Position numbers and translations under genes: made by a program. 64,000 nucleotides of DNA. Origin: a bacterium (GTDB taxonomy: Bacteria; Zhuqueibacterota; QNDG01; DSAB01). Below, piece after piece: positions 1-15,993 of the stretch. The stretch's first letter is position 1. Each line of letters begins with the position of its first letter. The stretch covers positions 1,063 to 65,062 of the forward strand of contig JAFGDT010000007.1 in assembly GCA_016931965.1 (NCBI GenBank), given 5' to 3'. Under the pieces are notes generated by a model. That model had not been told where the DNA came from. It did no database searches and saw nothing but the letters and a program-made list of their open reading frames with translations.

Positions 1-116
1 TCCTCTAAATAGACTTCCGGCATTTTTTTAAACGGAATTTTTGCTTTAACAAGACTGCTTTTTGCCCTCTTTATCCATTCCCTCGGATCGTCCGGCGGAA
101 AGCGTTCACTGACCAT
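1..116 (-). CDS. HEPN-domain protein, N-terminal part only (runs off the window edge)
   Basis: Manual translation from ATG at 116: MVSERFPPDDPREWIKRAKSSLVKAK...PEVYLE, a typical HEPN N-terminus; overlaps the stop of the adjacent MNT gene; absent from the ORF track. Confidence 0.75.
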   Translation of the reverse strand, partial: MVSERFPPDDPREWIKRAKSSLVKAKIPFKKMPEVYLE

Positions 117-423
117 AAACCACCTTTCCTTCCCTGAGAGCCGGCTCAATGACCAGAGCAAAAGAATCCTTATACCGTTCAATATCCTCAGGAGTCACAA
201 CCACAACATCTACAGCTTGCCCTACGCCATAAAGATTCATATAAATGGCTTGTGCCAAACACCTTCGATGTGCTCCTGATTTGACGACAAGCAAATCCAA
301 ATCGCTGTTGGGTCCCATTTCTTTAATTCCTGCAGAACCAAAGAGGATGATTTTCTCAGGTTGGGCTACTTCAACAATACGTCGAATAATTTCATCTAAT
401 ATTTTCTGCTTGATGCCTGCCAT
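106..423 (-). CDS. Minimal nucleotidyltransferase (MNT) antitoxin
   Basis: 105 aa; LFGS...DLDLLVV motif; coupled to the downstream HEPN gene. Confidence 0.85.
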   Translation of the reverse strand: MAGIKQKILDEIIRRIVEVAQPEKIILFGSAGIKEMGPNSDLDLLVVKSGAHRRCLAQAIYMNLYGVGQAVDVVVVTPEDIERYKDSFALVIEPALREGKVVYGQ

Positions 424-450
424 TGTTTACATTCCACCACGATATTAAAA

Positions 451-512
451 AGTGCCTAAAATAAATCAAAATATAAAATGTAAATATCAAAACCACAATC
501 CAAAATGCAAAA
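451..512. repeat. AGTGCCTAAA motif plus 50-nt 7-periodic A-rich arm
   Basis: aaatcaaaatataaaatgtaaatatcaaaaccacaatccaaaatgcaaaa (463-512) resembles arms at 4455, 10578 and 13130. Confidence 0.85.
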
Positions 513-600
513 TCATCTCTTCTCTCTAAGTCGTCAAAATGCTCGATGCAAAAATATTTCCAATCTCTTCTCATTCTTTTAAAAACCGACCAACTTCATT
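513..600 (-). pseudogene. 3' remnant of a four-helix-bundle gene
   Basis: Reads EVGRFLKE*EEIGNIFASSILT, then after a +1 shift LREKR*, versus EVDWFLKELEEIGNIFASSILTLKGKR* in 13180-13551; its stop abuts the arm as in the intact copy. Confidence 0.85.
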
Positions 601-659
601 TTATGGATTATCCGAAATCCTTCCCCTCACACCCGGCGGCCCCGGAATATGCTTGAAAT

Positions 660-1010
660 TTAAATCCACTTCACATCCTTTATCAAATTCCGACAGATCT
701 TACCCTCATCGCAAAGTTTTTGCCATTCTGCAGATGTATAGACAAGCAAATCGGCCGGTACGGCCAGGATTGTCGTATCCCATTTACTTGCTCGTCTGAT
801 AAAGGGCCGATCAGATTGGTTAACGATGATAATGACATCTATGTCGCTTCCCACACCCCAGTTCCCTTTGGCATATGATCCAAAGTAACCAATACGCAGT
901 ACATTCTTATTGCTTTTCTTGATCCGCCTGGCCCAATTCTCGAGATCCTTTATCACTGTCTGCGCATCAGGCCATTTGATTACGGACGAACTCAATGATC
1001 TCACGGGCAT
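660..1010 (-). CDS. MNT antitoxin
   Basis: Likely start MPVRSLSSSV at 1010 (track start 1115); FGSYAKGNWGVGSDIDVIII motif. Confidence 0.85.
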   Translation of the reverse strand: MPVRSLSSSVIKWPDAQTVIKDLENWARRIKKSNKNVLRIGYFGSYAKGNWGVGSDIDVIIIVNQSDRPFIRRASKWDTTILAVPADLLVYTSAEWQKLCDEGKICRNLIKDVKWI

Positions 1011-1362
1011 AACGTATCGTCTCCTCGCTCTGCAGAGAACCATAGTGTTCGAAAGGAGCTCCTTCCGGATGGCTGTTGGGATAACGCGGGGGTATGTAAT
1101 AGGTGTCCAGAACACGGGCTTTATCGATCATATCCTCTGGAACGTCTACATTGTCGGGGAGCTCGCTAAAAAGTTTAGAGATAACATGACCCCATGCTTC
1201 CTGCCCCAAATAGAGGTGAAGCGCTTTCACAGCCTTTTCAGCGGCTTGCTGCGCTGCAAAACATGCCCACTCATGATACCCCGCTTGCCTGGATTCTTCT
1301 GCTTGCTGCACGTCCCTTTTTGCTTGACTAAACCAGTCAGCAGAACGATTGGACATTGTCAT
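967..1362 (-). CDS. HEPN-domain protein (COG2250-like)
   Basis: WACFAAQQAAEKAVKAL...WGH...YIPPRYPN signature; overlaps the MNT gene. Confidence 0.9.
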   Translation of the reverse strand: MTMSNRSADWFSQAKRDVQQAEESRQAGYHEWACFAAQQAAEKAVKALHLYLGQEAWGHVISKLFSELPDNVDVPEDMIDKARVLDTYYIPPRYPNSHPEGAPFEHYGSLQSEETIRYAREIIEFVRNQMA

Positions 1363-1530
1363 TTACCTTTCTAAAATATTATGGAATGGTTGGAATTGAT
1401 AAGATAAAATTGTTTTTATATCCAACTTTTTTGATGAATCTAAAATTTCTATCCCAACAATTTTACCTGAATCTGTAAAATCTAAATGAACTCCCTCTGC
1501 CACTTCAACAACGCCATCTGGTTTTTCTTC
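1363..1530 (-). pseudogene. 5'-truncated DUF2283-like (antitoxin-associated) gene
   Basis: Manual translation EEKPDGVVEVAEGVHLDFTDSGKIVGIEILDSSKKLDIKTIL...*; no start; its TAA abuts the HEPN ATG. Confidence 0.7.
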
Positions 1531-1585
1531 CCCTGAGCGTTAAAATACCCGATACGAAAATATTTCCAATCTCTTCCAATATTCC
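1522..1585 (-). pseudogene. Second 3' remnant of a four-helix-bundle gene
   Basis: LEEIGNIFVSGILTLRGRK versus LEEIGNIFASSILTLKGKR. Confidence 0.75.
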
Positions 1586-1597
1586 ACGGAATGAAGA

Positions 1598-1695
1598 TTT
1601 TGACATTTGTCATTTTATCCCATTGGGATTTGGGATTTTACTTTTACCTTTTGCTTTTTGCCTTTTTACTTTTGCCTTTTTACTTTCGCTTTTTC
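1598..1695. repeat. T-rich arm plus TTTTGCC/TTTTAC-type tandem units
   Basis: The first ~41 nt recur with 1 mismatch at 3654-3694. Confidence 0.85.
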
Positions 1696-1757
1696 CCCGA
1701 ACCTTTCCACTCGATCCTTCATTCGAGAATCACTATCCGGATTGTTCATCTTCCTGT

Positions 1758-2375
1758 TCAAAACCGGCTCAACGCCACATCTGTCAGAAACGACCGGATT
1801 TCTTCCCCATCAGGGGACTCTGCCGCCATATCCACTTCTTCAGAATAATCGATATCATCGAAATAGGCCAATTGTTCACGGAACAATTTATCATTAAAGA
1901 CAGTCCCAAACAATTGATGAGCCCTTATTTCAATTTCCCCTAAAGAAAAATGATCCCGCAGCAGAAAATAGAGATCCACATAATCTTTCCATTTGCCCCG
2001 GCCTCCTAACGCTTGGGCTTTCATGGCACCGAGATCCAGCAGGACAGGCATGGAAATCACTCCTTCAAAATCAATTGGTGCAGGGATTTGAAATGGATAG
2101 GCGAAAAAAGTCAGTTTCACACCAAGCAACAGGCAATGCATTTGATCAAATGCCTCATAGAGTACATCCTCAATTTGAAAACCGCTTCTTTTTATTGTAT
2201 TTTGAATCTGCATTCTGTGGATCTCATTGTGGGTAAACAAATCAAAATCAATGGACCGCCGGTGTCCGATGTGCAGGGCGACGGCTGTTCCGCCTGCTAA
2301 ATAATATTGATCTGAAAAGTGGTGAAGAAGCGGCAGGAGCGCTTTTTGATTATCTGTCAGTATTTCAGGATGCAT
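1758..2375 (-). CDS. AbiEii-like nucleotidyltransferase (type IV TA toxin)
   Basis: Likely start MHPEIL at 2375; YYLAGGTAVALHIGHRRSIDFDLF and KWKDYVDLYF motifs. Confidence 0.85.
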   Translation of the reverse strand: MHPEILTDNQKALLPLLHHFSDQYYLAGGTAVALHIGHRRSIDFDLFTHNEIHRMQIQNTIKRSGFQIEDVLYEAFDQMHCLLLGVKLTFFAYPFQIPAPIDFEGVISMPVLLDLGAMKAQALGGRGKWKDYVDLYFLLRDHFSLGEIEIRAHQLFGTVFNDKLFREQLAYFDDIDYSEEVDMAAESPDGEEIRSFLTDVALSRF

Positions 2376-2637
2376 GTCTTTCAAAGTACTGCCGAAAGAA
2401 ATGGACGGTTCTTGGATGATAGTTGACACGCCTTCCGCCTATCTGTCGATTAAAAATTTCAGAAATTCTTTTCATGGATGCAATTTCGAACAATTCACGG
2501 ATATCCGAAATGTGTCCGTATTTCAGGATGGTTTCCACAACCGCACTGAGACTCAGGTTCTCTTTTGCCCCTTCACGGATATCCCAGAACAGATGGCTGT
2601 GCTGACGGATGTAGACTTTTAATGCTTCGGAATCCAT
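2365..2637 (-). CDS. DUF6922-like small partner (putative antitoxin) of the AbiEii protein
   Basis: 90 aa; LFWD...VVETILKYG motif; overlaps the AbiEii start. Confidence 0.7.
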   Translation of the reverse strand: MDSEALKVYIRQHSHLFWDIREGAKENLSLSAVVETILKYGHISDIRELFEIASMKRISEIFNRQIGGRRVNYHPRTVHFFRQYFERHAS

Positions 2638-2765
2638 GACAATAAAAATAAGTTCCTAAATTGCCTGAAGTCATAAAAAATCAAAATGTACCACTCTTGT
2701 CCAAAATAGGAAATAATTGAATTGATTATTTTTTTTAGCTTTTATTCATCTTCCAGGTTACAAGG

Positions 2766-2846
2766 GGATTCCGGCTCAAAACACGACCGGAATGACAGAG
2801 GGAGGGATGTCATTCCCGAAATTTTTAATCGGGAATCCAGGGGCGG
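2766..2846. repeat. REP-like double hairpin, GTCATTCC(C)...GGAATCC family
   Basis: Two head-to-head stem-loops; an inverted homolog lies at 16741-16820. Confidence 0.85.
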
Positions 2847-2970
2847 TGCTTTGATAACCTGATATTTAAATATAAAGAAAAACCAGTGTAACCCGCTTGT
2901 TCTCAATATATCCATTTCCTGTTTTGGACAGCAATGAAAATGTATAAATCAAAATGACAATATTAAAAAA

Positions 2971-2988
2971 TGCCTTAAGTGCCTAAAG
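2971..2988. repeat. TGCCTTAAG-TGCCTAAAG 9-mer tandem, left arm of an inverted repeat around the 4HB gene
   Basis: Complementary tract tttaggcactctaggcact at 3443-3461. Confidence 0.75.
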
Positions 2989-3050
2989 TTATACATTCTC
3001 TCATTGTTTTATACATTTTTAGAATTTTAATAAATTTGAATGAATCACAT

Positions 3051-3437
3051 TCAATGATTTGTTTTGCACGTTTTAAATATTTGAGAAAACAAGGCCAGCA
3101 ATTCGCCCGATTCTTCATATAGCTTTTTCATCTGTTCAACAGGTATCAATTCTGATTCCATAATAAGCTCTATCCAGTATTGAGTCTCAGCTGCTTCTTT
3201 TGTACAAATTGAAATTTTATTCTTAAAATCAGCTTGGCTGACAGATCTGTTGGCCTCACGGTAGTTGGCTCCTATCGATGTACCGGCTTTTATTAACCGA
3301 TAACAAATCACCTTTCCAGCGGCATTTGTTTTTAGTTTGAAGGATAAATTGATTATGTTAATCGCAAACCTTTTTGTTCTTTTCTCTAACTCTATAGCAA
3401 ATTCTTTATTGGTCAATTTTTCTTTTTTACAATTCAT
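3051..3437 (-). CDS. Four-helix-bundle protein (23S rRNA IVP / TIGR02436-like)
   Basis: LEKRTKRFAI...GTSIGANYREA...DFKNKISICTKEAAETQYWIEL signature. Confidence 0.9.
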   Translation of the reverse strand: MNCKKEKLTNKEFAIELEKRTKRFAINIINLSFKLKTNAAGKVICYRLIKAGTSIGANYREANRSVSQADFKNKISICTKEAAETQYWIELIMESELIPVEQMKKLYEESGELLALFSQIFKTCKTNH

Positions 3438-3464
3438 CTCATTTTAGGCACTCTAGGCACTTTT

Positions 3465-3567
3465 ACCCTGTGTAATAACATATTTTCTTGATGAATGAGA
3501 TAATAAACATAACTTTTTATAATTAGAAGTCTTATACACATCGTGAGGATTCACTATTACACAGGGT
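3465..3567. mobile_element. Small MITE-like element with 13-bp perfect terminal inverted repeats
   Basis: accctgtgtaata (3465-3477) / tattacacagggt (3555-3567); nested in a TAGGCACT tract; related to 10368-10433. Confidence 0.55.
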
Positions 3568-3653
3568 TAACTTTAGGCACTCTCAGTCTCGGGCGTAATT
3601 TTGGATAGGGACATTCCTCCCGTATTGTCGGTATTGGGGAATTGAATTAAATC

Positions 3654-3694
3654 TTTTGACATTTGTCATTTTACCCCATTGGGATTTGGGATTT
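3654..3694. repeat. 41-nt direct repeat of 1598-1639
   Basis: ttttgacatttgtcattttaYcccattgggatttgggattt. Confidence 0.9.
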
Positions 3695-3719
3695 GTTTCT
3701 GTACTTGCTATTCTTTATT

Positions 3720-4070
3720 TTAATGTTCGGTTTTTACACGATTTTGAACAAACTGCCTGTACACTGCCGCATCCATCAGGTATGCGGCCATCATCACCTG
3801 TTCAATATTCCCATAAGGATGGTTATTGACGATCAAAGATCCGATCGATTCGCGCAGTCTCAACAGCTCACCCCGCTTGGCCCGCCATTTTGGATCTGCA
3901 ATGATGTAATCCAGAAGAATCAACGCCCGGTAGAGATGATTTTTCGCACTTCCAGGATTCCCCTCCTGCAAACATTTTGCTTTGTTCAAATCACTGACCA
4001 TATGGCCGATCTGGTCATCAGCAGAGAATGATGCATAACGGTCCTTCAAATTTTTATACCAGTTTTTCAT
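3720..4070 (-). CDS. Hypothetical helical protein, partner of the DUF5674-like gene
   Basis: Likely start MKNWYKNL at 4070; overlaps the upstream gene by 17 nt. Confidence 0.65.
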   Translation of the reverse strand: MKNWYKNLKDRYASFSADDQIGHMVSDLNKAKCLQEGNPGSAKNHLYRALILLDYIIADPKWRAKRGELLRLRESIGSLIVNNHPYGNIEQVMMAAYLMDAAVYRQFVQNRVKTEH

Positions 4071-4431
4071 CTGCCCCCAGTAAAAGTGACTCAATGATCC
4101 GTCTGACTTTTTCCTTTGCCTTTTCATCCAGTATTTCCATTGACGGATTATCCTGATGAGGACGAATATTGATCAACGCCGTATATTCGATGCGTTTATC
4201 CGGTTCGTGCCACGGGTAAAAGTTGATTCCCCAGAGCGCCTCCGGCCCTGATCCTTCTTGAAGCAGAAGCAGTTCAGCATCTGCATGGAGATCCCCGCCA
4301 ATACCGGCACATTCCTTTTCAATATCGACAACCACTTTAACCATGTCACCAAACCATGTTTCGCAAAGTGACTTTAACCGAGCTTTCGATATTTTCTGGT
4401 TCATTACCAGAATGCTTTCAGAACCCAACAT
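4054..4431 (-). CDS. DUF5674-like protein
   Basis: DMVKVVVDIE...GGDLHADAE...LWGINFYP...IEYTALINIRP motifs. Confidence 0.75.
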   Translation of the reverse strand: MLGSESILVMNQKISKARLKSLCETWFGDMVKVVVDIEKECAGIGGDLHADAELLLLQEGSGPEALWGINFYPWHEPDKRIEYTALINIRPHQDNPSMEILDEKAKEKVRRIIESLLLGADEKLV

Positions 4432-4454
4432 GAAATACCATTATATTATTCATC

Positions 4455-4660
4455 AAATCAAAAATTAAAATGCAAAAATTAAAATGACAATCCAAAATGC
4501 AAAATTATTTCTCAAAAGATACAAAATCAAAATGCCAAATAAAATCCTGCATTTCCGCTCATCCCTCGTCTCCGCTCGGGATGACATTTTTTCTTTTTGT
4601 CTTTTCCTTTTTGCCTTTTTCCTTTAATCTTGATTCTTGTATCTTCTTTAATATCTTATT
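4455..4660. repeat. Cassette spacer: A-arm, REP-B hairpin, T-rich tract
   Basis: A-arm 4455-4505; tcatccc...gggatga hairpin 4559-4584; 4494-4625 repeats directly at 5210-5341. Confidence 0.9.
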
Positions 4661-4663
4661 TTA

Positions 4664-4888
4664 TTATTTCTTCAAGAAATCATCCAATTCAACTCCTGCT
4701 TCTTTCAATATCGCCCTTAAAGTCCCTTCAGGTAAATCTCCAGGATGATTGGGAATTGTTGTATATCGATTGGTAGAAGCATTATACCAGATCTCATGGC
4801 TACCCGCTGCATGCCGATGAAACTCAAAACCAAATCGTTTAAGTTTTTTCACTATTTCCCGATATTTGAACCCCGCCAATCTGCCCAA
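4664..4888 (-). CDS. hicA: HicA family toxin (mRNA interferase)
   Basis: 74 aa; GF...GSHEIWYN...TTIPNHPGDLPEGTLRAILK signature. Confidence 0.9.
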   Translation of the reverse strand: MGRLAGFKYREIVKKLKRFGFEFHRHAAGSHEIWYNASTNRYTTIPNHPGDLPEGTLRAILKEAGVELDDFLKK

Positions 4889-5125
4889 TTAAACACCAAC
4901 TACCAGTGGATATTCAAATGAATCTTCGGTGACAATCAAGTTTGATATATTCTCTTCTTTGGCCTCTATCAATTTTTTTACAACATCACGTGCAATTTCC
5001 AGTGTTTCTTCAATCGTACGTCCCTGGGCTACCAAACCTTGGATATCCTTGGATGTTGCCAGATAATATCCTTCAGGAAGCTTTTGAATATTGATTTTTA
5101 CGATACGTTCCAAATTGGCCTCCAT
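4889..5125 (-). CDS. hicB: HicB family antitoxin (short form)
   Basis: 78 aa; YLAT...GLVAQGRTIEETLEIARD motif. Confidence 0.85.
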   Translation of the reverse strand: MEANLERIVKINIQKLPEGYYLATSKDIQGLVAQGRTIEETLEIARDVVKKLIEAKEENISNLIVTEDSFEYPLVVGV

Positions 5126-5186
5126 GGAAACCGAACAAAATGTACAAAGTTAAATAAAATTAAAAACCAAAATCATAATTGAAAAA

Positions 5187-5430
5187 AGTGCCTAAAGTCA
5201 TACAAAATCAAAATGCAAAATCATTTCTCAACAAATACAAAATCCAAATGTCAAATAAAATCCTGCATTTCCGCTCATCCCTCGTCTCCGCTCGGCATGA
5301 CATTTTTTCTTTTTGTCTTTTGCCTTTTGCCTTTTTCCTTTCTCTTCACTCTTGCTTCTTGCTTCTTTATCCTTGATTCTTTTTCCTTTTTACTTTTTCC
5401 TTTTGCCTTTTTACTTTTACCTTTATCTTG
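5187..5430. repeat. Cassette spacer, second copy of the ~130-nt direct repeat
   Basis: AGTGCCTAAAG at 5187; 5210-5341 differs from 4494-4625 at fewer than ~10 positions; long pyrimidine tract follows. Confidence 0.9.
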
Positions 5431-5446
5431 ATACTTGCCTCTGTAT

Positions 5447-5782
5447 TCACATCTCTCTACCCGAAATCATCTCACAATACCACTGAGGGCAGGTTGATTG
5501 AAGTTTTTCAAATTCCTGTACCGTGTAAGGGAATACATCAATACCGACTGGGAAACCGGCCGGCAGATAATCGGGGATGCGTTCCCGGAAGGGTTTATCG
5601 GAGTCGCGGAGTATCAGACACAAATCGACATCACTCCCCGGCCGGGGAATCCCTTTTATCCAGGAACCAAACCAGATCATCCTTACAATCTCATGACAAT
5701 GATTCCGAAGATAGCCGATATGGTCTTTCACGGCCTGTTCCACCCGCTTCCGATCAATCGATTTGATGATGACAGAATTCAA
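5447..5782 (-). CDS. MNT antitoxin
   Basis: WFGSWIKGIPRPGSDVDLCLIL motif. Confidence 0.85.
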   Translation of the reverse strand: MNSVIIKSIDRKRVEQAVKDHIGYLRNHCHEIVRMIWFGSWIKGIPRPGSDVDLCLILRDSDKPFRERIPDYLPAGFPVGIDVFPYTVQEFEKLQSTCPQWYCEMISGREM

Positions 5783-6143
5783 GAATATCCTCCGCTATGC
5801 GTATGGCATTCTGAGATTCTTCACGAGTATAAAAATCGGTCGGTGCACCCGAATCAAATCCATTGGGATAGCGGCTGGGAATATAATGTTTATCCAGGAT
5901 CCTGGCCCCCCGAATGATGGAATCGGGAACTTCTGTTACCGATTGCAGATTGCCCACAAGAACGGTCAATGTATGCCCCCACGCCTCCATGCTTCTCTTC
6001 TGAAAAACAGCTTTGATCGCTTTTTCCGCTGCTTGTTGAGCCGCAAAACAGCTCCAATCATAATCGCCGTCCTTGAGCGCATGACGGGCATGATTAAGAT
6101 CGGCCTCCGCCTGCCTGTACCAATCTAAATAGCGGTTCGCCAT
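5754..6143 (-). CDS. HEPN-domain protein (COG2250-like)
   Basis: WSCFAAQQAAEKAIKA...WGH...HYIPSRYPN; paralog of 967-1362. Confidence 0.9.
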   Translation of the reverse strand: MANRYLDWYRQAEADLNHARHALKDGDYDWSCFAAQQAAEKAIKAVFQKRSMEAWGHTLTVLVGNLQSVTEVPDSIIRGARILDKHYIPSRYPNGFDSGAPTDFYTREESQNAIRIAEDILEFCHHQID

Positions 6144-6198
6144 AAAACACTCTTCCGAGAATGAAAAATTTTCTTCAAATCGATGCCCTTGTTGTTGA

Positions 6199-6410
6199 AT
6201 TAAAAATTAAAATGGAAAAACACTTCCTTTTGAATTTTGATCCTTCGCCTGCTCCTTCACTCCGTTCAGGACTTCGGCTCAGGACTGATCTGTCATTTTG
6301 CATTTTGATTTTTAATTCTAAAAATATTATTTATTTTGGATTTGGGATTTACCTTTTACCTTTTGCCTTTTTACTTTTTCCTTCTGCCTTTTATTTTTTC
6401 ACTTTTCTAT
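6199..6410. repeat. Cassette spacer: inverted arms 6199-6214 / 6301-6316 enclosing a REP-like fragment, then a T-rich tract
   Basis: attaaaaattaaaatg versus cattttgatttttaat (1 mismatch). Confidence 0.7.
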
Positions 6411-6487
6411 CCCACAGTACAATAACGATAAAACCTGTACATCAAGTACACGGACTGAGATGCTGAACACATTGAAATTATCCCCCC

Positions 6488-6556
6488 GATAATTTCTTCT
6501 ATTGTAATTAAATCATCTCGTGCTGATTTCAACCACTCAGCTGTTATCTGCTTCAT
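6488..6556 (-). pseudogene. Truncated HEPN gene (about 23 codons of recognisable N-terminus)
   Basis: MKQITAEWLKSARDDLITIEEII overlaps the MNT end; HEPN resemblance then ends. Confidence 0.65.
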
Positions 6557-6881
6557 AGATCAATTTCCCATTTTGCATTATTTCTCGCGAAAACATACTA
6601 TTCAGTTGAATGAATTTCTCATGCATCGGCAGAGTATGTACAATAATATCCATCGGGAAATCTTTCCGTACCGAATCCAACAATCTGGAAAACCGCATTT
6701 TGACATCCATTTTTTCTTTAAAGCTACGGGGGAGAAACCGATCATTCGTCACAATATAAAGGTCAATGTCGCTATCAGCATGACACTTATCGGAAGTATA
6801 CGATCCAAATAGAATGACTTTTTGGGGATTCTCCTTTTTAATCTTTTCAATTATTTTTTTCTGAATATGTTCTGATAGCAT
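6537..6881 (-). CDS. MNT antitoxin (partner truncated)
   Basis: ILFGSY...DSDIDLYIV motif. Confidence 0.85.
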   Translation of the reverse strand: MLSEHIQKKIIEKIKKENPQKVILFGSYTSDKCHADSDIDLYIVTNDRFLPRSFKEKMDVKMRFSRLLDSVRKDFPMDIIVHTLPMHEKFIQLNSMFSREIMQNGKLIYEADNS

Positions 6882-6900
6882 AAATAGAACTTTAATAGAT

Positions 6901-7035
6901 AAATCAAAAATTAAAATGCGAAAATATTATCCAACAAATCCAAAAATAATTTTAACATACCATTTTTGACACTTGGATTTTGGGCTTTATTTTTCATTTG
7001 GATTTTGACATTTGACATTTTTGCCTTTTTACTTG
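6901..7035. repeat. Cassette spacer: A-arm then T-arm
   Basis: 6901-6918 is identical to 13130-13147; T-rich heptamer tract at 6961-7035. Confidence 0.8.
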
Positions 7036-7039
7036 AATT

Positions 7040-7355
7040 AAATCCTCGCCTCAAAGCCGAATGCTTCTCTCGCCCGGCGCACATCGAGCATCCGCCTCGG
7101 CGGCATCTTCCACATAGATGTATTCTCGTGTCACCTCACCCGTTCCCCAGACAACAATTTAATCTTTATTTTCACTAACCGCATACACACATTTCTTGAT
7201 CAGCACCTGAATCACGTGTTGGGAACAGGCGTATATTTGGGATAGGCACAAATCGTCCCGATGCAGACAAACTTCTGGATTCCGAACTGTCGCGCCTGTT
7301 CGATGAGCTCAATGCCCATAATCGCATTGTTATAGAAAAATGTACCGCCATTCTC
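7040..7355 (-). pseudogene. fcl: Internally deleted remnant of a second GDP-L-fucose synthase gene
   Basis: Three collinear blocks matching 8267-9208 (FFYNNAIMG...[10 protein letters not shown] / [26 protein letters not shown] / PRRMLDV...FGF); in-frame stop. Confidence 0.9.
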
Positions 7356-7442
7356 GTGGCTGATTCCAATACTCCACTTTCTCTGTAAAATAAACCCCGA
7401 TACTTCATTATTACCCCCCCTGCGTATGCTCCGCTCCTTATA

Positions 7443-7895
7443 TCATTTCCTTCTTTCTCTTTGTTGCATCCTCCTTAAAAATTCGCCGATTTGCTCGCCA
7501 AAGACCTTGCTGACTCGGCCAAATTTACCCACCAATCGATCAAGCCGTTCTCCTTTCAATTCAAACCCATAAATATTCCTGAATACATGTCGAAATGAAA
7601 GATAATCATCAAGTTCAGCAGCCAGCTCCTCTGAAACTACCTGCGGTCGGATGCCTTTTATCTCAATAGTCATACGATATAAGAGTTCTTTGTTCCAGGT
7701 TTCGCTTTGCACAAATCCACCGTTAATATCTGCGGTTATTCTTCTAAAAATCCTCTCGCAGCAATTGTAAAAGTCATGAAGAATTGAACCTTGCGCTCTG
7801 CGATTGTTTACTTTGTCCCTCTTCTTTATCACTTCTTCAAGTTCTTCTCTTAATCTGGCTATGTTCTCCAGCTCTTTATGGACCTCAGCAACCAT
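7443..7895 (-). CDS. HepT-like HEPN ribonuclease toxin
   Basis: LHDFYNCCERIF...FRHVFRNIYGFEL motif. Confidence 0.8.
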   Translation of the reverse strand: MVAEVHKELENIARLREELEEVIKKRDKVNNRRAQGSILHDFYNCCERIFRRITADINGGFVQSETWNKELLYRMTIEIKGIRPQVVSEELAAELDDYLSFRHVFRNIYGFELKGERLDRLVGKFGRVSKVFGEQIGEFLRRMQQRERRK

Positions 7896-7911
7896 TTATT
7901 CCCAGAAAATC

Positions 7912-8262
7912 TCATTCTTTCTCATAGATAATCCACCCCTCCCTTATTATCTTTTCTTTAGATGAACCCTCTAACCCTTCAAAGGGCTTGAGATCAACAG
8001 AAAAGTTGGAATTTTTTAGCAAACAAGCATAAGCTTTGTAGAACATGGCATCTTCTAAACCTTCGATTGCCAAATCAATATCTGACCATGCCGATAATGA
8101 CTTCCCATTGGTAACGGAACCGAAAAGATAGACCCTTTTGAATTCAAACCCTTCGGCATTCAAAAGCTGAACCAGCCACTGAGCTTCGTTTTTTAAATCT
8201 GTTCTTAACATATGGCATACAACTTTTCGTCGTTCTTTGACTTTTTCTAAATAAGTTTTCAT
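7912..8262 (-). CDS. MNT antitoxin
   Basis: Likely start MKTYLEK at 8262, 4 nt after the fcl stop; LFGSV...SDIDLAIEGL. Confidence 0.85.
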   Translation of the reverse strand: MKTYLEKVKERRKVVCHMLRTDLKNEAQWLVQLLNAEGFEFKRVYLFGSVTNGKSLSAWSDIDLAIEGLEDAMFYKAYACLLKNSNFSVDLKPFEGLEGSSKEKIIREGWIIYEKE

Positions 8263-8266
8263 CTGA

Positions 8267-9244
<978 letters not shown>

Positions 9245-10285
9245 CTAAAATCCCCGTTTCTTGACCTTTTCACAGTCCGCCTCCACCATGATCTTCACCA
9301 GCTCGGCAAACTTGACCTGGGGATCCCATCCTAACTTCTGTTTCGCTTTTGAACAATCCCCGACTAAAAAATCGACCTCCGTGGGCCTGAAATATTTCGT
9401 ATCGACAGCCACACGCACCTGACCGCTCTTCTTCTCAATGCCCCTTTCGCCGTTTCCTTTTCCCTCCCACTCCAATTCCATGCCGATTTCTTTGAAAGCC
9501 AGATCGACAAACTCCCTCACCGAATAAGACTCACCCGTGGCAATGACAAAATCTTCCGGTTCGTCAAGCTGCAGCATTTTCCACATCGCATCGACATACT
9601 CGGGCGCATAGCCCCAGTCCCGCCTGGCATCCAAGTTGCCGACAACGAGTTTTTCCTGGATGTTGTGTCGGATTCGGGCCACAGCTCTGGTGATCTTCCG
9701 GCTGATGAATGTCTCTCCTCGCCGTGGCGATTCATGGTTAAAGAGAATCCCGTTGCAGGCAAACAGATTGTAGGCCTCGCGGTAATTCACAATGATCCAG
9801 TAGGCGTACAGTTTGGCGATTCCGTAGGGTGACCGCGGATAAAAGGGTGTCTTTTCCGTCTGCGGAATTTCCCGCGCCTTGCCGTAAAGCTCGCTGGTCG
9901 AAGCCTGATAGAACTTCGTCCGGATCCCCGTCTCCTTGATCGCATCCAAAAACCGCAGTGTGCCGATGGCGTCGACCTCCGCCGTATATTCAGGCACTTC
10001 AAAAGAGACCTTCACATGGCTCTGAGCACCCAGGTTGTATATTTCATCAGGTTTCACTTTTTCCAGCAGCCGGTTGAGATTGCTGGAATCGGTCAGATCA
10101 CCATGATATAAAAACATCCTTTTATCATGAATGTCGGGATCATTGAAAAGGTGATCGATTCGGCCGGTATTGAACGAACTGCTCCTCCGGATAATACCGT
10201 GCACTTCGTAGCCCTTCTCCAGGAGAAGCTCAGTAAGATAAGAGCCGTCCTGGCCTGTGATCCCTGTGATGAGAGCCTTTTTCAA
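9245..10285 (-). CDS. gmd: GDP-mannose 4,6-dehydratase
   Basis: [41 protein letters not shown]; TTG start. Confidence 0.97.
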
Positions 10286-10304
10286 TTGAATATCCTTATT
10301 AAAC

Positions 10305-10470
10305 AGTGCCTAAAGTTATTCAAAATGTAAAAATCAAAACCACAATGAAAAATCCAAAATCCAAATTTACCCTGTTAGATAACTAACTTCTGACATCGAA
10401 TACAAATCCAAATAATTTCTATCTAACAGGGTAGATACCAATACTATCAAATAAAAAAAAGTGCCCAAAG
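10305..10470. repeat. AGTGCCTAAAG plus partial A-arm, MITE-like insert and AGTGCCCAAAG
   Basis: Same motifs as 451-512 and 5187. Confidence 0.8.
10368..10433. mobile_element. MITE-like element with 14-bp perfect terminal inverted repeats
   Basis: taccctgttagata / tatctaacagggta, 38-nt interior. Confidence 0.55.
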
Positions 10471-10577
10471 TAAGACAAAGAAAAAAGATAAAAGATAAAA
10501 CAGATTTTTCATTCATAAATCTGAACTGTATGATACATCTTTTCTGAAATGAATTTTCTTCATGATACTATTAAATT

Positions 10578-10683
10578 AAATCAAAAATCAAAATGTAAAA
10601 ATCAAAATGACAATGTAAAATGCAAATATATTTATTTTTGATTTTTGATATGTCATTTTTCATTTTGATATTTGATTTTTAAT
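10578..10683. repeat. Empty arm pair (hairpin with no cargo gene)
   Basis: Left arm 45/50 identical to 13130-13179; 10578-10595 pairs with 10661-10678 (1 mismatch). Confidence 0.85.
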
Positions 10684-10693
10684 ATACTCTTTA

Positions 10694-11293
10694 TCACGAT
10701 GTCTGAATCAGCATCTCCCCCTCAACCCCATACTCCTTCTGACACCGCATACAGATGGCCGTCTTCTCGACCACTTCCAGTTTCTCTCCGCATTCACAGA
10801 CCCAACCCTGCTGTTTAGCAGGGACGCCGACCATCAGTCCATAGTCGGGCACGTCCTTGGTCACCACAGCTCCTGCGCCGATAAAGGCATGTCTGCCGAT
10901 GGTATGACCGCAGACAATGGTGGCATTGGCGCCAATGGAGGCTCCTTCACGAACGAGTGTTTTTTTGTAAAATTCTTTTCCCCGCTGTGGGTATTTGCAC
11001 CGCGGATCGAGGATGTTGGTAAAGACCATCGAAGGACCGCAGAAGACATAATCTTCAAGCTCGACGCCTTCGTAGACCGAAACATTGTTCTGGATCTTGA
11101 CATGATTGCCGATCCTGACGTTGTTCCCCACATTCACATTCTGCCCCACAGAACAGTTTTTCCCGATCATCGAACCGCTCTGAATATGCGAAAAATGCCA
11201 GATTTTCGTGCCCTCCCCGATCTCCACATTCTCATCCACATAACTGCTCTCGTGCACAAAGTATTTCTTTTTTTCAGCCATTGTATGATCCAC
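10694..11293 (-). CDS. WbpD/WlbB-like sugar N-acetyltransferase (hexapeptide repeat)
   Basis: IGEGTKIWHFSHI, KIQNNVSVYEGV, VFCGPSMVFTN, GASIGANATI. Confidence 0.88.
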   Translation of the reverse strand: MDHTMAEKKKYFVHESSYVDENVEIGEGTKIWHFSHIQSGSMIGKNCSVGQNVNVGNNVRIGNHVKIQNNVSVYEGVELEDYVFCGPSMVFTNILDPRCKYPQRGKEFYKKTLVREGASIGANATIVCGHTIGRHAFIGAGAVVTKDVPDYGLMVGVPAKQQGWVCECGEKLEVVEKTAICMRCQKEYGVEGEMLIQTS

Positions 11294-11314
11294 TTTTACT
11301 GAAATAAACGAACA

Positions 11315-11557
11315 TCATGTTTTGCCGGATTGATGCGAATGCATAGCTGCCCTTAATCTCCCCTGTGTCTGAATCAGTGCCTCCAGATGCTCCTGATGCC
11401 ATTTTTGAATCATATCGGGATGCATGGATTGACCGAATTCGTATAATTCGGCAAATTGCTCTAAATGTTCTTGCACTGAAATCTGTTTATTGTACCTGAT
11501 TTCCCAATCATTGAAACGGCGATATTTCTCCAAAAGAAGTGTGTATCTATTTTTCAT
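11315..11557 (-). CDS. Hypothetical 80-aa protein coupled to the nucleotidyltransferase
   Basis: Overlaps the stop of 11547-12107; no recognisable motif. Confidence 0.55.
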   Translation of the reverse strand: MKNRYTLLLEKYRRFNDWEIRYNKQISVQEHLEQFAELYEFGQSMHPDMIQKWHQEHLEALIQTQGRLRAAMHSHQSGKT

Positions 11558-12107
11558 GTTTCATCTGTTCCAGTTTTTCAATAATCATTGCATTGTTCAG
11601 GAACTCTGAGAGCTCCCTGCAGTGTTTCATCACGTGGTCCCAATCCAAATTGTCCGCATGATTTTCAACAACCGTCCGAATATCGATCCAGTCCTTTTCC
11701 CTTTTGGAAATGGCTTTTTGAATAATAAAATCTTCCGGTGTACATACACTGGCCTCAATGCCAAACAGAGACGTTTTTCGGCTTCGTTTAACCGCTTCTT
11801 TCTCAAACGGCAGTTCGGCAACTACAAGATCAATCCGGCAACCAGCCACTTTTATCGGCAATACATTGGTTTCTTTGATAAACTGTTCAGGCTTCTCAGA
11901 GAGGAATTCTGAAACAGGACCAAGTATCTTTATCAGCTTTGCATAACCTTTCTGACCACCTGGCAGCAGGATCTTGATATCAATATCCACCGTAAATCTT
12001 GGACATCCATAAACTGACAGAGCTATACCCCCAAAAATCATGTATTCAATCTGATTTTTTTCAAAAACGGATATTAATATCCCAAGTGATTTTTTGAAAG
12101 GTTTCAC
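11547..12107 (-). CDS. Nucleotidyltransferase (DUF6036/AbiEii-like fold)
   Basis: MIFGGIALSVYGCPRFTVDIDI and EDFIIQKAISKREKDWIDI motifs; GTG start abuts the upstream stop. Confidence 0.75.
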   Translation of the reverse strand: MKPFKKSLGILISVFEKNQIEYMIFGGIALSVYGCPRFTVDIDIKILLPGGQKGYAKLIKILGPVSEFLSEKPEQFIKETNVLPIKVAGCRIDLVVAELPFEKEAVKRSRKTSLFGIEASVCTPEDFIIQKAISKREKDWIDIRTVVENHADNLDWDHVMKHCRELSEFLNNAMIIEKLEQMKHEK

Positions 12108-13088
12108 TTACCATTGCTCCATCAAAGATGCCGTTGCCCTTTCCAGAATTTCCAGAACCTCCACACCATTCTGACCGTTGGCAATTTCAACCGGTGAACC
12201 GTCCAGATGATTCAGAAAATAGCGCAGTTCCTCTGTGAGCGGCATGGCCGGATCATACGGGATCACTTCCGTCGGCCCCTCCCGCTTAATCGGTTCGCCG
12301 CGGACCCAGTCGATGCCTTTTTCGTAATAGAGAACCTCTTTTTCTTCTGAGGAATCCTCAAACGACAGCATGCCTTTCGATCCGATGATGACCAGCCGGT
12401 GCTCTTTAAAGGGATGCAGCCAGCTGACAAAATTATGGACCACAATATTATTGGGATAGGTTAAAACCGTCATGGTGGAATCATGAATGTGGGGCTGGAT
12501 AAAGGCACCGCCGCGGGAAACGATTTCAACAGGCAGCGCTTCGATTAAATACTGAAAAATAGCGATATCGTGCGGAGCAAAACTCCACAAAATGTTCTCC
12601 TCTTTACGGACGGTACCAAGGTTCAACCGGTTGCTGTAAATATATTGAAGTTTGCCGATTTTATCTGTTTGGATCAATTCCTTGATTTTTCGTATCGCGG
12701 GATGGAAAAGAAGCACATGCCCCACCATCAGATTGACACCTTGTTTCTCGGCCAGATCACGAAGCCTGATGGCATCTTTCAGATTGAGTGTAATTGGTTT
12801 TTCGACGAGAGCATGCTTTTTTGATTTTATGACACTTTCGGCGATCTCGTAATGGGTTTCGGCTGGCGTGGCCACAATGAATCCGTCAAAATCCGCCTCA
12901 ATTGCCTGCTGCAAATCTTCAAAAACCTTGATATGCGCATATTGATTTTGATAGGCCTCAAGCGTTTCCCGATGGTTATCGACAACGCCTCCCAGACAGT
13001 GAAACTGATCAAGCGTCTTGATATGATTCTTCCCCCACCTGCCACCACCGACAACGCAAACATTTCTATCATTTGATTTATGAGTCAA
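12108..13088 (-). CDS. Gfo/Idh/MocA oxidoreductase, WbpB/WlbA-like
   Basis: VVGGGRWGKNH, VEKP, VGHVLLFHPA, WSFAPHD; context with aminotransferase and acetyltransferase. Confidence 0.82.
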   Translation of the reverse strand: MTHKSNDRNVCVVGGGRWGKNHIKTLDQFHCLGGVVDNHRETLEAYQNQYAHIKVFEDLQQAIEADFDGFIVATPAETHYEIAESVIKSKKHALVEKPITLNLKDAIRLRDLAEKQGVNLMVGHVLLFHPAIRKIKELIQTDKIGKLQYIYSNRLNLGTVRKEENILWSFAPHDIAIFQYLIEALPVEIVSRGGAFIQPHIHDSTMTVLTYPNNIVVHNFVSWLHPFKEHRLVIIGSKGMLSFEDSSEEKEVLYYEKGIDWVRGEPIKREGPTEVIPYDPAMPLTEELRYFLNHLDGSPVEIANGQNGVEVLEILERATASLMEQW

Positions 13089-13129
13089 CCTGAAATCCTT
13101 TCGCTTTCTATTTTGGATTTGCCATACTT

Positions 13130-13179
13130 AAATCAAAAATTAAAATGCAAATATCAAAATGACAATGTAAAATGTAAAA
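13130..13179. repeat. A-arm directly after the 4HB stop codon
   Basis: 13130-13151 pairs with 13545-13566 at 21/22 positions. Confidence 0.9.
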
Positions 13180-13551
13180 TTACCTCTTTCCTTTAAGTGT
13201 TAAAATACTGGAAGCGAAAATATTTCCAATCTCTTCTAATTCTTTTAAAAACCAATCTACTTCTTTTTGTTGAACACGCTTACTATCTCTAAGCAAAGAA
13301 ATCCACAGTTTACTCTCATTTGTCGATTTTAAAGATATATTAAAATAGTTCGTGAAATCCTTTTTGCTACTGGCAGCTTGACCTTCTATATAATTTCCCA
13401 ATATACTTGTGCTGCTACGTAATAGCTGATCTCCAAGCCTTTTGGAAACATTGTCTTTAGGTAAATGATCCAAAAATTCTATCAACTTAAGAACAAAACG
13501 ATAAAGACGACCTTTAAACTCCTTTTTAAATTTTGATCTGCCATTTTGCAT
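13180..13551 (-). CDS. Four-helix-bundle protein (23S rRNA IVP / TIGR02436-like)
   Basis: QLLRSSTSILGNYIEG..ASSKKDF...SLKSTNESKLWISLL signature. Confidence 0.92.
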   Translation of the reverse strand: MQNGRSKFKKEFKGRLYRFVLKLIEFLDHLPKDNVSKRLGDQLLRSSTSILGNYIEGQAASSKKDFTNYFNISLKSTNESKLWISLLRDSKRVQQKEVDWFLKELEEIGNIFASSILTLKGKR

Positions 13552-13570
13552 TTTAATATTTGATTTTTAC
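13543..13570. repeat. T-arm containing the 4HB start codon
   Basis: attttgcattttaatatttgatttttac; the ATG (13551-13549) lies inside the repeat. Confidence 0.85.
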
Positions 13571-13591
13571 ATTATTACTCACAAAACAACT

Positions 13592-14728
13592 CTATTGATA
13601 AAATTCCATGATTGCCTCGATGACATAATCTTGCATCTCTCTTGTTAATTCGGGATAAATCGGTAGCGCCAATGTATGGGAAGCGGCATGCTCGCTGTTC
13701 GGAAAATCGCCGGTTTGATATCCCAAATATTGAAAACAGGCCTGCTGATGAAAGGGTACGGGGTAGTAAATTTCATGACCGACCTGTTTCTTTTTGAGAA
13801 AAGCGCCGAGGTCATCCCTTCGGTCCGGAACGGAAATCACATACTGATTGTAGATGTGATACTCCCTCTCGTAGGCAATCACCGGTTTTTGAATGCCTTC
13901 AACATTGAGATGAGCATCATAGTAAGCAGCATTCTCCTGACGCCCCTTATGCCATGTTTCAAGATAGGTGAACTTGACAAGCAGAATAGCCGCCTGTATG
14001 GGATCCAGCCGAAAATTGCCGCCGATGAGTGAATGATAATATTTGGGAGAGGCCCCGTGATTCCTTAACTTGATCAACTTGTAGGCCAGACCTTCATCAT
14101 TGGTAACAACCATACCCCCGTCACCCATCGCACCCAGATTCTTGCTCGGGAAAAAGGAGAAACATCCCATTGCCCCCATGCTGCCTGCTTTCCTGACATC
14201 GGTTGATGAGGGATATCGGGCGCCGATGGCCTGGGCGGCATCCTCGATAACAGGAATGTCGAATTGGCTTGCCATTTCAAGGATTGGATCCATATCCGCA
14301 CATTGCCCGTAGAGATGCACGGGGATCATTGATTTGACTTTCTTCGCCTTTTTGGGATTGTCATAAAACCAATTCTTGAGTGCCTGGGGATCCATGTTGT
14401 ACGTATCCGGCTCGATATCGATGAAAACCGGCACAGCACGGAGACGGGCGATCACACCCGCTGTGGCAAAAAAGGAATAAGGTGTGGTGATGACCAGATC
14501 ATCCGGCTGGATGTCCAATGCCATCAATGAAACGAGCAGAGCATCCGTTCCTGAAGAGACACCGATACCGAAAGCAGCACTGCAGTATTTCGCCAGAGTC
14601 TTCTCCAATTCGACCACTTTGGGTCCCATGATATACCGTGTGGATTCAATCACTTCATCGATTGCTTTTTTCACTTCATCCCGAATCGGCTCCAGTTGCG
14701 CTTTCAGATCAAGTAAAACCACTTCCAT
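13592..14728 (-). CDS. DegT/DnrJ/EryC1/StrS aminotransferase, WbpE-like
   Basis: SSGTDAL, VHLYGQ, EDAAQAIGA, FSFFPSKNLGAMGDGG, GGNFRLD. Confidence 0.9.
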   Translation of the reverse strand: MEVVLLDLKAQLEPIRDEVKKAIDEVIESTRYIMGPKVVELEKTLAKYCSAAFGIGVSSGTDALLVSLMALDIQPDDLVITTPYSFFATAGVIARLRAVPVFIDIEPDTYNMDPQALKNWFYDNPKKAKKVKSMIPVHLYGQCADMDPILEMASQFDIPVIEDAAQAIGARYPSSTDVRKAGSMGAMGCFSFFPSKNLGAMGDGGMVVTNDEGLAYKLIKLRNHGASPKYYHSLIGGNFRLDPIQAAILLVKFTYLETWHKGRQENAAYYDAHLNVEGIQKPVIAYEREYHIYNQYVISVPDRRDDLGAFLKKKQVGHEIYYPVPFHQQACFQYLGYQTGDFPNSEHAASHTLALPIYPELTREMQDYVIEAIMEFYQ

Positions 14729-14863
14729 ATCGTTTTTCTCTTTCAGGTTCTAAATACAGCTCCGCCTCCTCAGTCCCATAATTGGAACCGAGCGAGGCAA
14801 AAATGAATGATATAATCTATCTCGAAAATTCGAACCGGCTCTTATGGATAGCCGGTCAGAACA

Positions 14864-15985: not shown

Positions 15986-15993
15986 ATCTCTGT

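Follow-up and report, generated by a model that had tools for sequence, protein, structure and literature searches.

A glycan operon in a Zhuqueibacterota genome raises the question of what its long, repetitive spacers are. The operon lies at one end of a 64,000-nucleotide stretch (GenBank assembly GCA_016931965.1, contig JAFGDT010000007.1, positions 1,063 to 65,062 of the forward strand), which we refer to as the window and number from 1. All real genes of positions 1-16587 are on the minus strand, and the sugar genes share the region with an array of small modules of toxin-antitoxin (TA) type. The original prediction, made from the sequence alone, listed five MNT/HEPN modules, AbiEii/DUF6922, HicBA, a DUF5674 pair, a nucleotidyltransferase pair and two four-helix-bundle (4HB) genes, all co-oriented with the sugar genes, and proposed that 7-nt-periodic inverted repeats in the spacers delimit cassettes that are gained and lost. 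Pfam and NCBIfam searches bear out the gene list and its orientation. For the spacers, we think it rather probable that they are complete, open reading frame (ORF)-less and half copies of an inverted-repeat element that encodes a 4HB protein and resembles the ORF-bearing intervening sequences (IVSs) of 23S rRNA, of which it would be an 'extra-ribosomal' version.

The arms of the repeats form the two ends of an element of about 455 bp, which has sharp boundaries and a 4HB gene in its loop. The sense arm (AAATCAAAWATYAAAATGCAAAATGRCA...AAATTYAAAAAGGA) comprises the leader of the 4HB gene, its start codon and its first ~10 codons (MQNG/DxxKFKKEF), and the 3' arm is the inverted complement of the same sequence, which substantiates the predicted tie between arms and 4HB genes. 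In the complete copy of the window (type 1; Table 1), the 5' arm (13524-13580) consists of heptamer repeats and includes the ATG at 13551 and the first codons MQNGRSKFKK. The arms are complementary at 77% over 43 nt (13130-13172/13524-13566), and the predicted minimum-free-energy structure of 13100-13600 pairs both around the ORF (13180-13551, minus strand), which encodes 123 aa and matches PF05635/TIGR02436. The two 4HB proteins of the window score 69.6 and 59 bits against Pfam PF05635 and 83 and 75 bits against TIGR02436; their isoelectric points (pI) are 9.95 (type 1) and 9.28, and PDB 2rld matches the window 4HB protein with E=3e-11.

Constraint on the element was measured over 58 distinct copies. 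The flanks have a column identity of 0.27. Before the ATG, the last 30 nt reach 0.62 and the last 10 nt 0.82; the first 30 nt after the stop codon reach 0.69, and at about -30 and +55 the value falls sharply to background. Identity at codon positions 1, 2 and 3 is 0.81, 0.89 and 0.44, respectively; since the first two positions lie far above the third, the 4HB protein is under purifying selection. The arm sequence is under stronger constraint than synonymous sites. Judged by these alignments, the element is a discrete unit with selected non-coding ends. Short length, terminal inverted repeats, high copy number and the lack of a transposase are features that it shares with miniature inverted-repeat transposable elements and other non-autonomous inverted-repeat units. 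Decay of the ORF leaves ORF-less hairpins and solo arms.

The arm consensus, with at most 3 mismatches, matches the window at four positions (463, 4455, 10578 and 13130) and none of 100 shuffles. Partial copies are visible in the sequence at 2948, 5204, 6199, 6901 and 10320, and all period-7 tandem-repeat calls of the 64 kb fall within 463-13180. The long, imperfect, 7-nt-periodic inverted arms that had been predicted are therefore real. The proposed order of A-rich arm, optional cargo and T-rich arm stands as to the inverted pairing but not as to the cargo: between matched A-rich and T-rich arms there is a 4HB gene or its remnants only, and the TA modules sit between hairpins, never inside a matched arm pair. 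Likewise, the shared junction architecture is found in many spacers but not at the junctions of the DUF6036 pair, which abuts Gfo/Idh (12108/12107) and the acetyltransferase, or of MNT 7912-8298, which overlaps the end of fcl; these are armless. There are also at least three arm types: AAAATCA/AAAATGC heptamers (type 1), AAAGTGCCT nonamers (type 2) and AAATCCC/purine AAAAGGN arrays (type 3).

Among the decayed copies, the ORF-less type-1 hairpin at 10577-10686 has arms of 54 nt (10577-10630/10633-10686) that are 70% complementary with a 2-nt loop, and it has an orthologue (4962-5059) in L131, one of three orthologous operons described below (L131, L217 and L220). The hairpin at 6882-7049 is 88.5% identical to the hairpin following the acetyltransferase in L220. 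An internally deleted element (6192-6323), preceded by a purine heptamer array (AAAAGGN) at 6330-6400, still has both of its arms: the 5' arm includes ATGCAAAATGACAGATCAG (start codon and N-terminal codons), and a GC-rich insert and ..AAATTCAAAAGG lie before the 3' arm. The 4HB C-terminus (...EEIGNIF...) is recognisable in spacer 424-659 (tblastn E=5e-6) and in spacer 1504-1757 (LEEIGNIFVSGILTLRGRK at 1523-1579, E=8e-5). The intact type-1 element is 82% identical to a copy in L131 that occupies a different position, and shows 68-69% nucleotide identity over 445 nt to Patescibacteria loci L072 and L067. The second 4HB gene (3051-3437) belongs to a subfamily other than that of 13180-13551; its arms are inverted (AAAGTGCCT)n at 3443-3464/2966-2987 (22 nt, 86%, 455 nt apart, period 9), beside a type-1 3' arm fragment at 2937-2961. 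The GTGCCTAAAG motifs scattered over other spacers are remnants of such nonamer arms. Type-3 arms (AAATCCC/GGGATTT, grading into purine AAAAGGN) flank a frameshifted 4HB gene in L220. Spacer bins reach 126-1286x metagenome depth, against a few tens elsewhere, and Logan unitigs break at the spacers. Apparent 'joints' from unitigs at the spacers were rejected as deletion alleles; they are other hairpin copies.

A local hidden Markov model search of all DNA gathered gave eight 4HB sequence clusters, from which ten elements were scored, including two members each of the large type-1 cluster and of one small cluster. The best 24-nt inverted match between the flanks is 18-24 out of 24 in all ten and lies above every shuffle in eight of them (shuffle means 14-18), and 9 of the 10 have at least one arm whose best period is 7. 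The repeat sequence itself differs entirely by subfamily (AAAATCA, CAGTAAG/CTTACTG, TAGCTAA, CGAAATC, CTAAATC and others). The sequence is free among subfamilies while inverted symmetry and period are kept, a pattern indicating that pairing and periodicity matter.

The element is found far beyond this locus. An exact 22-mer of the arm, scanned against species-representative genomes, gave at least 120 loci. By record title, the matches listed include 58 from Patescibacteria/candidate phyla radiation, 18 from Planctomycetota, 8 from Nitrospirota and 3 from Dehalococcoidia, the rest including Omnitrophota, WOR-3 and KSB1. Of the 127 arm matches listed, 108 fall between genes; genes were called on both sides in 88 cases, and in 69 of these the two are co-directional. 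Arm-to-arm distances are either 13-120 nt, corresponding to empty hairpins, or 365-400 nt, corresponding to one 123-aa ORF. The type-1 4HB protein has 2556 relatives at E<=1e-10; the best 120 of the 2556 are all 77-89% identical and ~123 aa long, and the closest carry the names Sedimentisphaerales/Phycisphaerae. Phage carriage was rejected, as viral contigs contained no 4HB relative and only 3 arm matches.

Eighty further 4HB element loci were taken from metagenomes. The gene upstream of the element is co-oriented with it in 67/69 cases and the gene downstream in 65/68; the element typically starts 20-60 nt past the upstream stop codon, and the next gene typically starts ~20-130 nt past the 4HB stop codon. 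The 123 distinct immediate neighbours are mostly housekeeping genes, with LeuC/LeuD (aconitase family, 10 and 13), TsaD (11), Mnh/Mbh antiporter subunits (7-9) and PurE (6) predominating. None of the 25 neighbour families shown is a TA family, and there is only one epimerase. The 844 kb around 120 arm loci contain homologues of the window's TA proteins at a single locus, and 4HB genes at nine. In one Terrybacteria contig, 8 kb between VirB4/TrbL-like genes hold six arms and one 4HB gene but no TA gene; a Pirellulales-labelled metagenome-assembled genome has the element between prs and pth, and the Sedimentisphaerales copy lies at the leuC/leuD junction in 10/10 places shown, nearly all in different samples. 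Contrary to what had been expected, the arms are thus specific neither to TA cassettes nor to glycan loci, and their scatter independently of cassettes goes part of the way to refuting the cassette model.

The leuC/leuD junction is occupied in many divergent metagenome genomes (L121-L130, L158, L161, L169, L173, L184, L192, L193, L205, L209, L213), which reflects either very long residence or repeated insertion. Two further junctions recur, one of them after a gene ending ...LLEDE*. In L011, L070, L092, L101 and L111, the ATG in a solo arm seemingly starts an unrelated downstream gene (N-termini MQKSK... or MQND...), for example one that is tRNA adenosine deaminase-like; this could equally be an ORF-calling artefact. 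At 9725-10563 of L131, type-2 nonamer arrays enclose type-1 arms enclosing a 4HB gene, with a truncated second 4HB start upstream, an arrangement suggestive of one element inserting into another's loop.

ORF-bearing 23S rRNA IVSs, whose protein is S23p, are carried by Leptospira, Coxiella burnetii, Xanthomonas and Brucella. The window element shares with them the PF05635 '23S rRNA-intervening sequence protein'/TIGR02436 family, the position of the ORF in the loop of a long stem formed by terminal inverted repeats, and tandem heptamers by the 4HB start codon. The Coxiella burnetii IVS encodes a protein of this family in the loop of a stem that RNase III cleaves. Tandem heptamers (GACAGAT), whose number varies by strain, immediately precede the S23p start, and the IVS, which lies within the host transcript and is transcribed as part of it, has been seen as a selfish unit or one that moves horizontally (PMC4990558). 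However, the window element lies between protein-coding operon genes (DegT/Gfo; elsewhere leuC/leuD and prs/pth) and not in rRNA helix 25/45, and Rfam finds no rRNA within 1-17500. Its ORF is intact and under purifying selection, whereas the Coxiella ORF is decaying; ORF-less hairpin derivatives are abundant in its family; and RNase III cleavage, known for the Coxiella IVS, is for the window-type element presumed by analogy. The open literature that we searched holds no description of these units outside rRNA, where the 4HB hairpin element is apparently undescribed.

Other repeat families resemble the element less closely. Neisseria Correia/NEMIS, enterobacterial REP/BIME and ERIC sequences are short, high-copy, co-transcribed intergenic hairpins whose repeats mediate rearrangements, and Correia elements are RNase III targets. 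Short inverted-repeat units in operon intergenic regions and high copy number are common to them and the window element, but the full-length parent of the latter encodes a 4HB protein and not a transposase, its arms are tandem heptamer arrays, and its family spans distant phyla with conserved arm sequence. The short tandemly repeated repetitive (STRR) sequences of cyanobacteria and the TAACTGA repeats of Beggiatoaceae also have a 7-nt period, high copy number and an intergenic position, often just upstream of start codons; they were rejected as direct rather than inverted, with one inverted case among 170 sets, and unrelated in sequence, and the paper mentions no 4HB gene (PMC4679880). The Avd protein of diversity-generating retroelements is small and basic and has the same fold superfamily, but these were rejected as well, with no reverse transcriptase in the window and an NCBIfam DivGenRetAVD score of 28 bits for the window 4HB protein, below the cut-off of 80. 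TIGR-Tas arrays have alternating 8-12-nt edge/loop repeats with 9-nt spacers and adjoin a Nop-domain Tas gene (PMC12045711); they were rejected, as the window arrays have period 7 without interspersed variable spacers and no Nop-domain protein was found. One arm-bearing locus, L044 (MHIL01000006.1, Buchananbacteria rifcsphigho2_02_scaffold_15087), is an example locus in the TIGR-Tas paper (PMC12045711), probably by coincidence.

The three orthologous operons allow the array to be compared among relatives. Core-gene nucleotide identity to the window is 82-86% for L220, 75-80% for L217 and 73-75% for L131, and all four operons begin UpxY-epimerase-DegT...Gfo...acetyltransferase. Their alignment confirms that module content and order differ. 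The junction of DegT and Gfo holds the intact type-1 4HB element in the window; in L220 a 4HB gene from another subfamily, frameshifted and flanked by arms of its own; in L131 a solo 5' arm; and in L217 an armless DUF6922+AbiEii pair overlapping the DegT end. The window and L131 have the DUF6036 pair, L220 retains a 58-nt remnant of it and L217 lacks it. The acetyltransferase is followed by about nine modules in the window, about seven in L131, at least five in L217 and one in L220, where a hairpin and three stacked 3' arms stand in place of ~6 kb of modules. Shared modules are reordered, and the downstream sugar genes differ (gmd/fcl, rml genes and others). Blocks have changed places between L217 and L131, which are 87% identical in the core. 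Of the breakpoints, two fall within a 3' arm and two at the apex where a purine 5' arm meets the 3' arm, and L217 has one chimeric arm that combines two. Module gain, loss and shuffling are real, then, and hairpins are often at the joints. In this respect the proposed gain and loss of cassettes through the arms is half right: content differs and some breakpoints lie in hairpins, but several events are imprecise and arm-free, which speaks against a dedicated site-specific cassette system. The changes fit repeat-mediated and illegitimate recombination better, with the arms probably acting as dispersed recombination substrates.

The IVS-like reading could work as follows. A unit without its own promoter would be transcribed by read-through of the host operon; in keeping with this, promoter and terminator scans showed no enrichment over shuffles. 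Its arms would pair in the RNA, and the stem, by analogy with the 23S rRNA IVS, would probably be an RNase III substrate. The stem would set the upstream stop codon beside the downstream start codon and so limit polar effects; because it joins the flanking cistrons, insertion would cost little. Sequestration of the 4HB start codon in the stem would restrict translation, and the basic 4HB protein (pI ~10), distantly related to Avd, may bind its own repeat arms. With the UpxY antiterminator, RNA polymerase may pass a dozen hairpins more readily. In this lineage, TA modules have gathered in the distal, dispensable stretch of the UpxY-antiterminated glycan operon; they offer many harmless stop-start junctions, and hairpin elements have accumulated there. 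The dispersed 7-nt-periodic repeats would in turn become substrates for ordinary, not site-specific, recombination, which together with imprecise deletions and horizontal transfer would reshuffle, delete and add modules.

Several results weigh against this reading. Folding statistics are mixed overall: spacer 4432-4663 folds at -48.7 kcal/mol in the sense direction (z=-3.66; antisense z=-2.9), spacer 5126-5446 is not more structured than shuffles (z=0.07), and the full element has z=-0.79. The asymmetry between sense and antisense folding (e.g. -48.7 vs -29.5 kcal/mol) was rejected as a sign of RNA-level selection and left unused as evidence; it is compositional, because shuffles show the same gap. 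Within type 1, cognate and non-cognate arm duplexes have the same energy (-27.2 vs -27.2 kcal/mol, p=0.55) with no covariation signal, and RNAalifold on the joined type-1 arms gives no consensus structure. This lack of covariation arises because the arm sequence itself is conserved, and it is from the comparison between subfamilies alone that selection on pairing draws support. None of the transcriptome runs searched contains the locus. At the element ends no target-site duplication is evident by eye, a call that AT-rich ends make uncertain; no transposase for the element was found, the full-length unit encoding the 4HB protein only; and no empty site with a precise boundary was seen. Residence at leuC/leuD agrees equally well with vertical inheritance of a domesticated gene and with mobility. 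Lastly, the arm-free, imprecise indels belong on this side of the balance, and the breakpoints in arms count for little, as most of the non-coding space that allows viable breakpoints consists of arms.

The alternative that survives best, although we consider it unlikely, confines the hairpins to RNA. They would act as signals in processing, stability, insulation or translational coupling, with the 4HB protein as co-factor and no role in DNA rearrangement, and the array would vary by ordinary horizontal transfer and illegitimate recombination in a dispensable region. The strong sense-orientation bias, the conserved arms, the abutment of elements on stop and start codons, long-term residence at the same junctions, the IVS/RNase III precedent and the arm-free imprecise indels all agree with it. 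It is contradicted by the four L217/L131 breakpoints in hairpins and the chimeric arm, by element-sized presence/absence polymorphism and replacement at one junction, and by sharp ends in unrelated contexts, which imply insertion events.

A bolder proposal, speculative and decidedly improbable, is that TIGR02436 4HB genes with inverted heptamer arms form a hitherto unrecognised, cross-phylum class of self-propagating elements, of which the 23S rRNA IVSs are the rRNA-resident minority. An oligomeric, basic 4HB protein would recognise cognate repeats and promote insertion or recombination at operon junctions, and the hairpins would be integrase-independent, attC-like exchange points for TA and glycan modules. 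If the protein does recognise its own cognate repeats, each subfamily would for that reason have its own repeat sequence.

Slightly more doubtful again is an integron-like system, in which the hairpins would be attC analogues for a recombinase encoded elsewhere and the TA and sugar modules would move as units. As in integrons and clusters of attC sites lacking integron-integrases, the modules are small, co-oriented and apparently promoterless, many are TA pairs, imperfect hairpin repeats separate them, and content and order vary among relatives. The chimeric L217 arm with two breakpoints at hairpin apices, the three cargo-less 3' arms stacked in L220 and a DDE_Tnp_1_6 gene downstream in L131 could be cited in its favour. 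However, a core-motif search of both strands of 1-13600 found 0 RYYYAAC...GTTRRRY pairs 50-150 nt apart, against ~3 expected from shuffles, and Pfam found no integrase (IntI tyrosine recombinase included), other recombinase, transposase or reverse transcriptase among the ORFs of at least 180 aa in the 64 kb, so that the original prediction was correct on both absences. Moreover, the arms are termini of their own ORF family, the same arms occur singly and stably in housekeeping operons of many phyla without cassettes, and some modules lack arms and some losses are imprecise (the 58-nt remnant in L220). An artefact of low complexity, slippage or assembly in an AT-rich metagenome bin, to which the AT-rich, low-complexity sequence and the breaking of Logan unitigs at spacers might point, is effectively refuted by the same architecture in >200 independently assembled loci (NCBI, JGI, ENA), by arms conserved in register with an ORF under purifying selection and by the absence of matches in shuffles.

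Table 1. Features of the glycan operon, the TA-module array and the spacers (window coordinates).
Feature	Coordinates	Strand	Basis and remarks
Host operon, glycan (sugar)	8267-16587	-	Pfam/NCBIfam; gene order kept in L131, L217, L220
UpxY-family NusG-like antiterminator	15994-16587	-	NCBIfam 149.9 bits vs cut-off 100
UDP-GlcNAc 2-epimerase	14864-15985	-	
DegT aminotransferase	13592-14728	-	
Complete type-1 4HB element	13128-13580	-	Between DegT and Gfo/Idh; 3' arm 13128-13179
Gfo/Idh oxidoreductase	12108-13088	-	
DUF6036 nucleotidyltransferase + 80-aa ORF	11547-12107 (DUF6036); pair 11315-12107	-	Between Gfo/Idh and acetyltransferase; armless
Hexapeptide acetyltransferase	10694-11293	-	
ORF-less type-1 hairpin	10577-10686	-	Directly after acetyltransferase stop; 5' arm retains AAAATGAAAAATGACA; fold prediction
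Composite spacer upstream of gmd	10286-10576	-	Type-1 3' arm 10320-10365; palindrome 10365-10436; (AAAGATA)n 10477-10505; type-2 arm motifs GTGCCTAAAG/GTGCCCAAAG at 10306-10315 and 10461-10470
gmd	9245-10285	-	
fcl	8267-9208	-	
Array of TA-type two-gene modules between hairpins	1-8298	-	MNT/HEPN x5, AbiEii/DUF6922, HicBA, DUF5674+135 aa; domain matches
MNT + HepT-like	7912-8298 + 7443-7895	-	Pfam/NCBIfam
Hairpin spacer, fcl pseudogene to MNT 6881	6882-7049	-	5' arm 6964-7040; 3' arm 6901-6955
MNT + truncated HEPN	6537-6881 + 6407-6556	-	Pfam/NCBIfam
Spacer with internally deleted 4HB element (6192-6323)	6144-6406	-	Inverted arms 28 nt, 86%
HEPN + MNT	5754-6143 + 5447-5782	-	Pfam/NCBIfam
MNT 5447/HicB spacer	5126-5446	-	Purine heptamer array 5300-5440; GC hairpin 5262-5300; U-rich type-1 3' arm 5200-5250; GTGCCTAAAG at 5188-5197
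HicB + HicA	4889-5125 + 4664-4888	-	Pfam/NCBIfam
HicA/DUF5674 spacer	4432-4663	-	Purine heptamer array 4587-4650; GC hairpin 4553-4590; type-1 3' arm 4455-4545
DUF5674 + 135-aa ORF	4054-4431 (DUF5674)	-	Pfam/NCBIfam
Spacer with type-3 (AAATCCC/GGGATTT) arm remnants	3438-3719	-	ATGACAAATGTCA at 3655-3700; palindrome 3462-3570; GTGCCTAAAG motifs
Type-2 4HB element	2966-3464	-	ORF 3051-3437, 128 aa, PF05635/TIGR02436
DUF6922 + AbiEii	2365-2637 + 1758-2429	-	Pfam/NCBIfam
Spacer with purine/type-3 heptamer array (1621-1694) and internally deleted 4HB remnant	1504-1757	-	
DUF2283 fragment	1363-1503	-	
HEPN + MNT	967-1362 + 660-959	-	Pfam/NCBIfam
Spacer with 4HB C-terminal remnant EVGRFLKE*EEIGNIFASSILT (532-597)	424-659	-	tblastn E=5e-6; type-1 3' arm 463-515; GTGCCTAAAA at 452-461
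MNT + HEPN	106-423 (MNT); HEPN continues past window end	-	Pfam/NCBIfam

The operon is transcribed in the order UpxY, epimerase, DegT, 4HB (13551-13180), Gfo/Idh, DUF6036 + 80-aa ORF, acetyltransferase, gmd and fcl. The small modules follow to the window edge: MNT + HepT-like, MNT + truncated HEPN, HEPN + MNT, HicB + HicA, DUF5674 + 135 aa, the second 4HB gene, DUF6922 + AbiEii, the DUF2283 fragment, HEPN + MNT and MNT + HEPN. Going by domain matches, they can be classed as putative type II/IV TA systems, being adjacent small genes with matching toxin and antitoxin domains (MNT/HEPN, HicAB, AbiE). UpxY relatives at ~60% identity carry the names KSB1, Calditrichota and Latescibacteria, and a search for proteins identical to gmd gave no match. 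After the MNT/HepT module lies a fragmentary fcl pseudo-copy (7080-7340, minus strand) in three pieces, 83-95% identical to 8366-8965, and the L217 array likewise ends in an fcl remnant, which suggests that modules inserted into or beside an ancestral fcl. From 17 to 64 kb the window holds housekeeping genes (Wzz, FtsK, RseP, Dxr, LpxACD, BamA, TamB, UppS, SMC and others). Among them, 6-phosphogluconate dehydrogenase is split into overlapping ORFs (56702-57808 and 56154-56753, spanning 56154-57808) that both match PF00393, by either a frameshift or an assembly error.

Other small repeats occur in and around the array. An inverted repeat of ~112 nt (2759-2870/16715-16827, 82% identical) contains a GGAATGACA...TGTCATTCC hairpin; its two copies lie in the array and just upstream of UpxY, and the repeat is high-copy in the source metagenome (the 2753-3096 bin is elevated). 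A GC-rich hairpin repeat, GTCATCCCGAGCGGAG(A/T)CGAGGGATGA, forms the apex of two spacer hairpins (4553-4590, 5262-5300) and recurs in tandem outside the array (23975-24030) as a separate small repeat family. The AT-rich palindromes at 3462-3570 and 10365-10436 share the stem core TTTACCCTGT (…TTTACCCTGTGTAATA… and …TTTACCCTGTTAGATA…). The only Rfam match (E<=1, 1-17500), mir-1991 on the palindrome at 10365-10436, was rejected as a chance match.

As a variable region of a glycan locus, the TA-module array is of an ordinary kind. The interesting part of the locus is its spacers, copies of an IVS-like element family that, outside rRNA, is widespread and apparently not yet described. The finding bears on the function of the S23p/4HB family and on the origin of 23S rRNA IVSs, questions that date from the 1990s, and it turns an rRNA curiosity of a few pathogens into a testable, widespread system in the operons of Patescibacteria, Planctomycetota, Nitrospirota and others. 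For annotation, it accounts for a class of AT-rich, high-copy hairpins at which metagenome assemblies break; in glycan loci, it names a definite source for the shuffling of TA and sugar modules through repeats.

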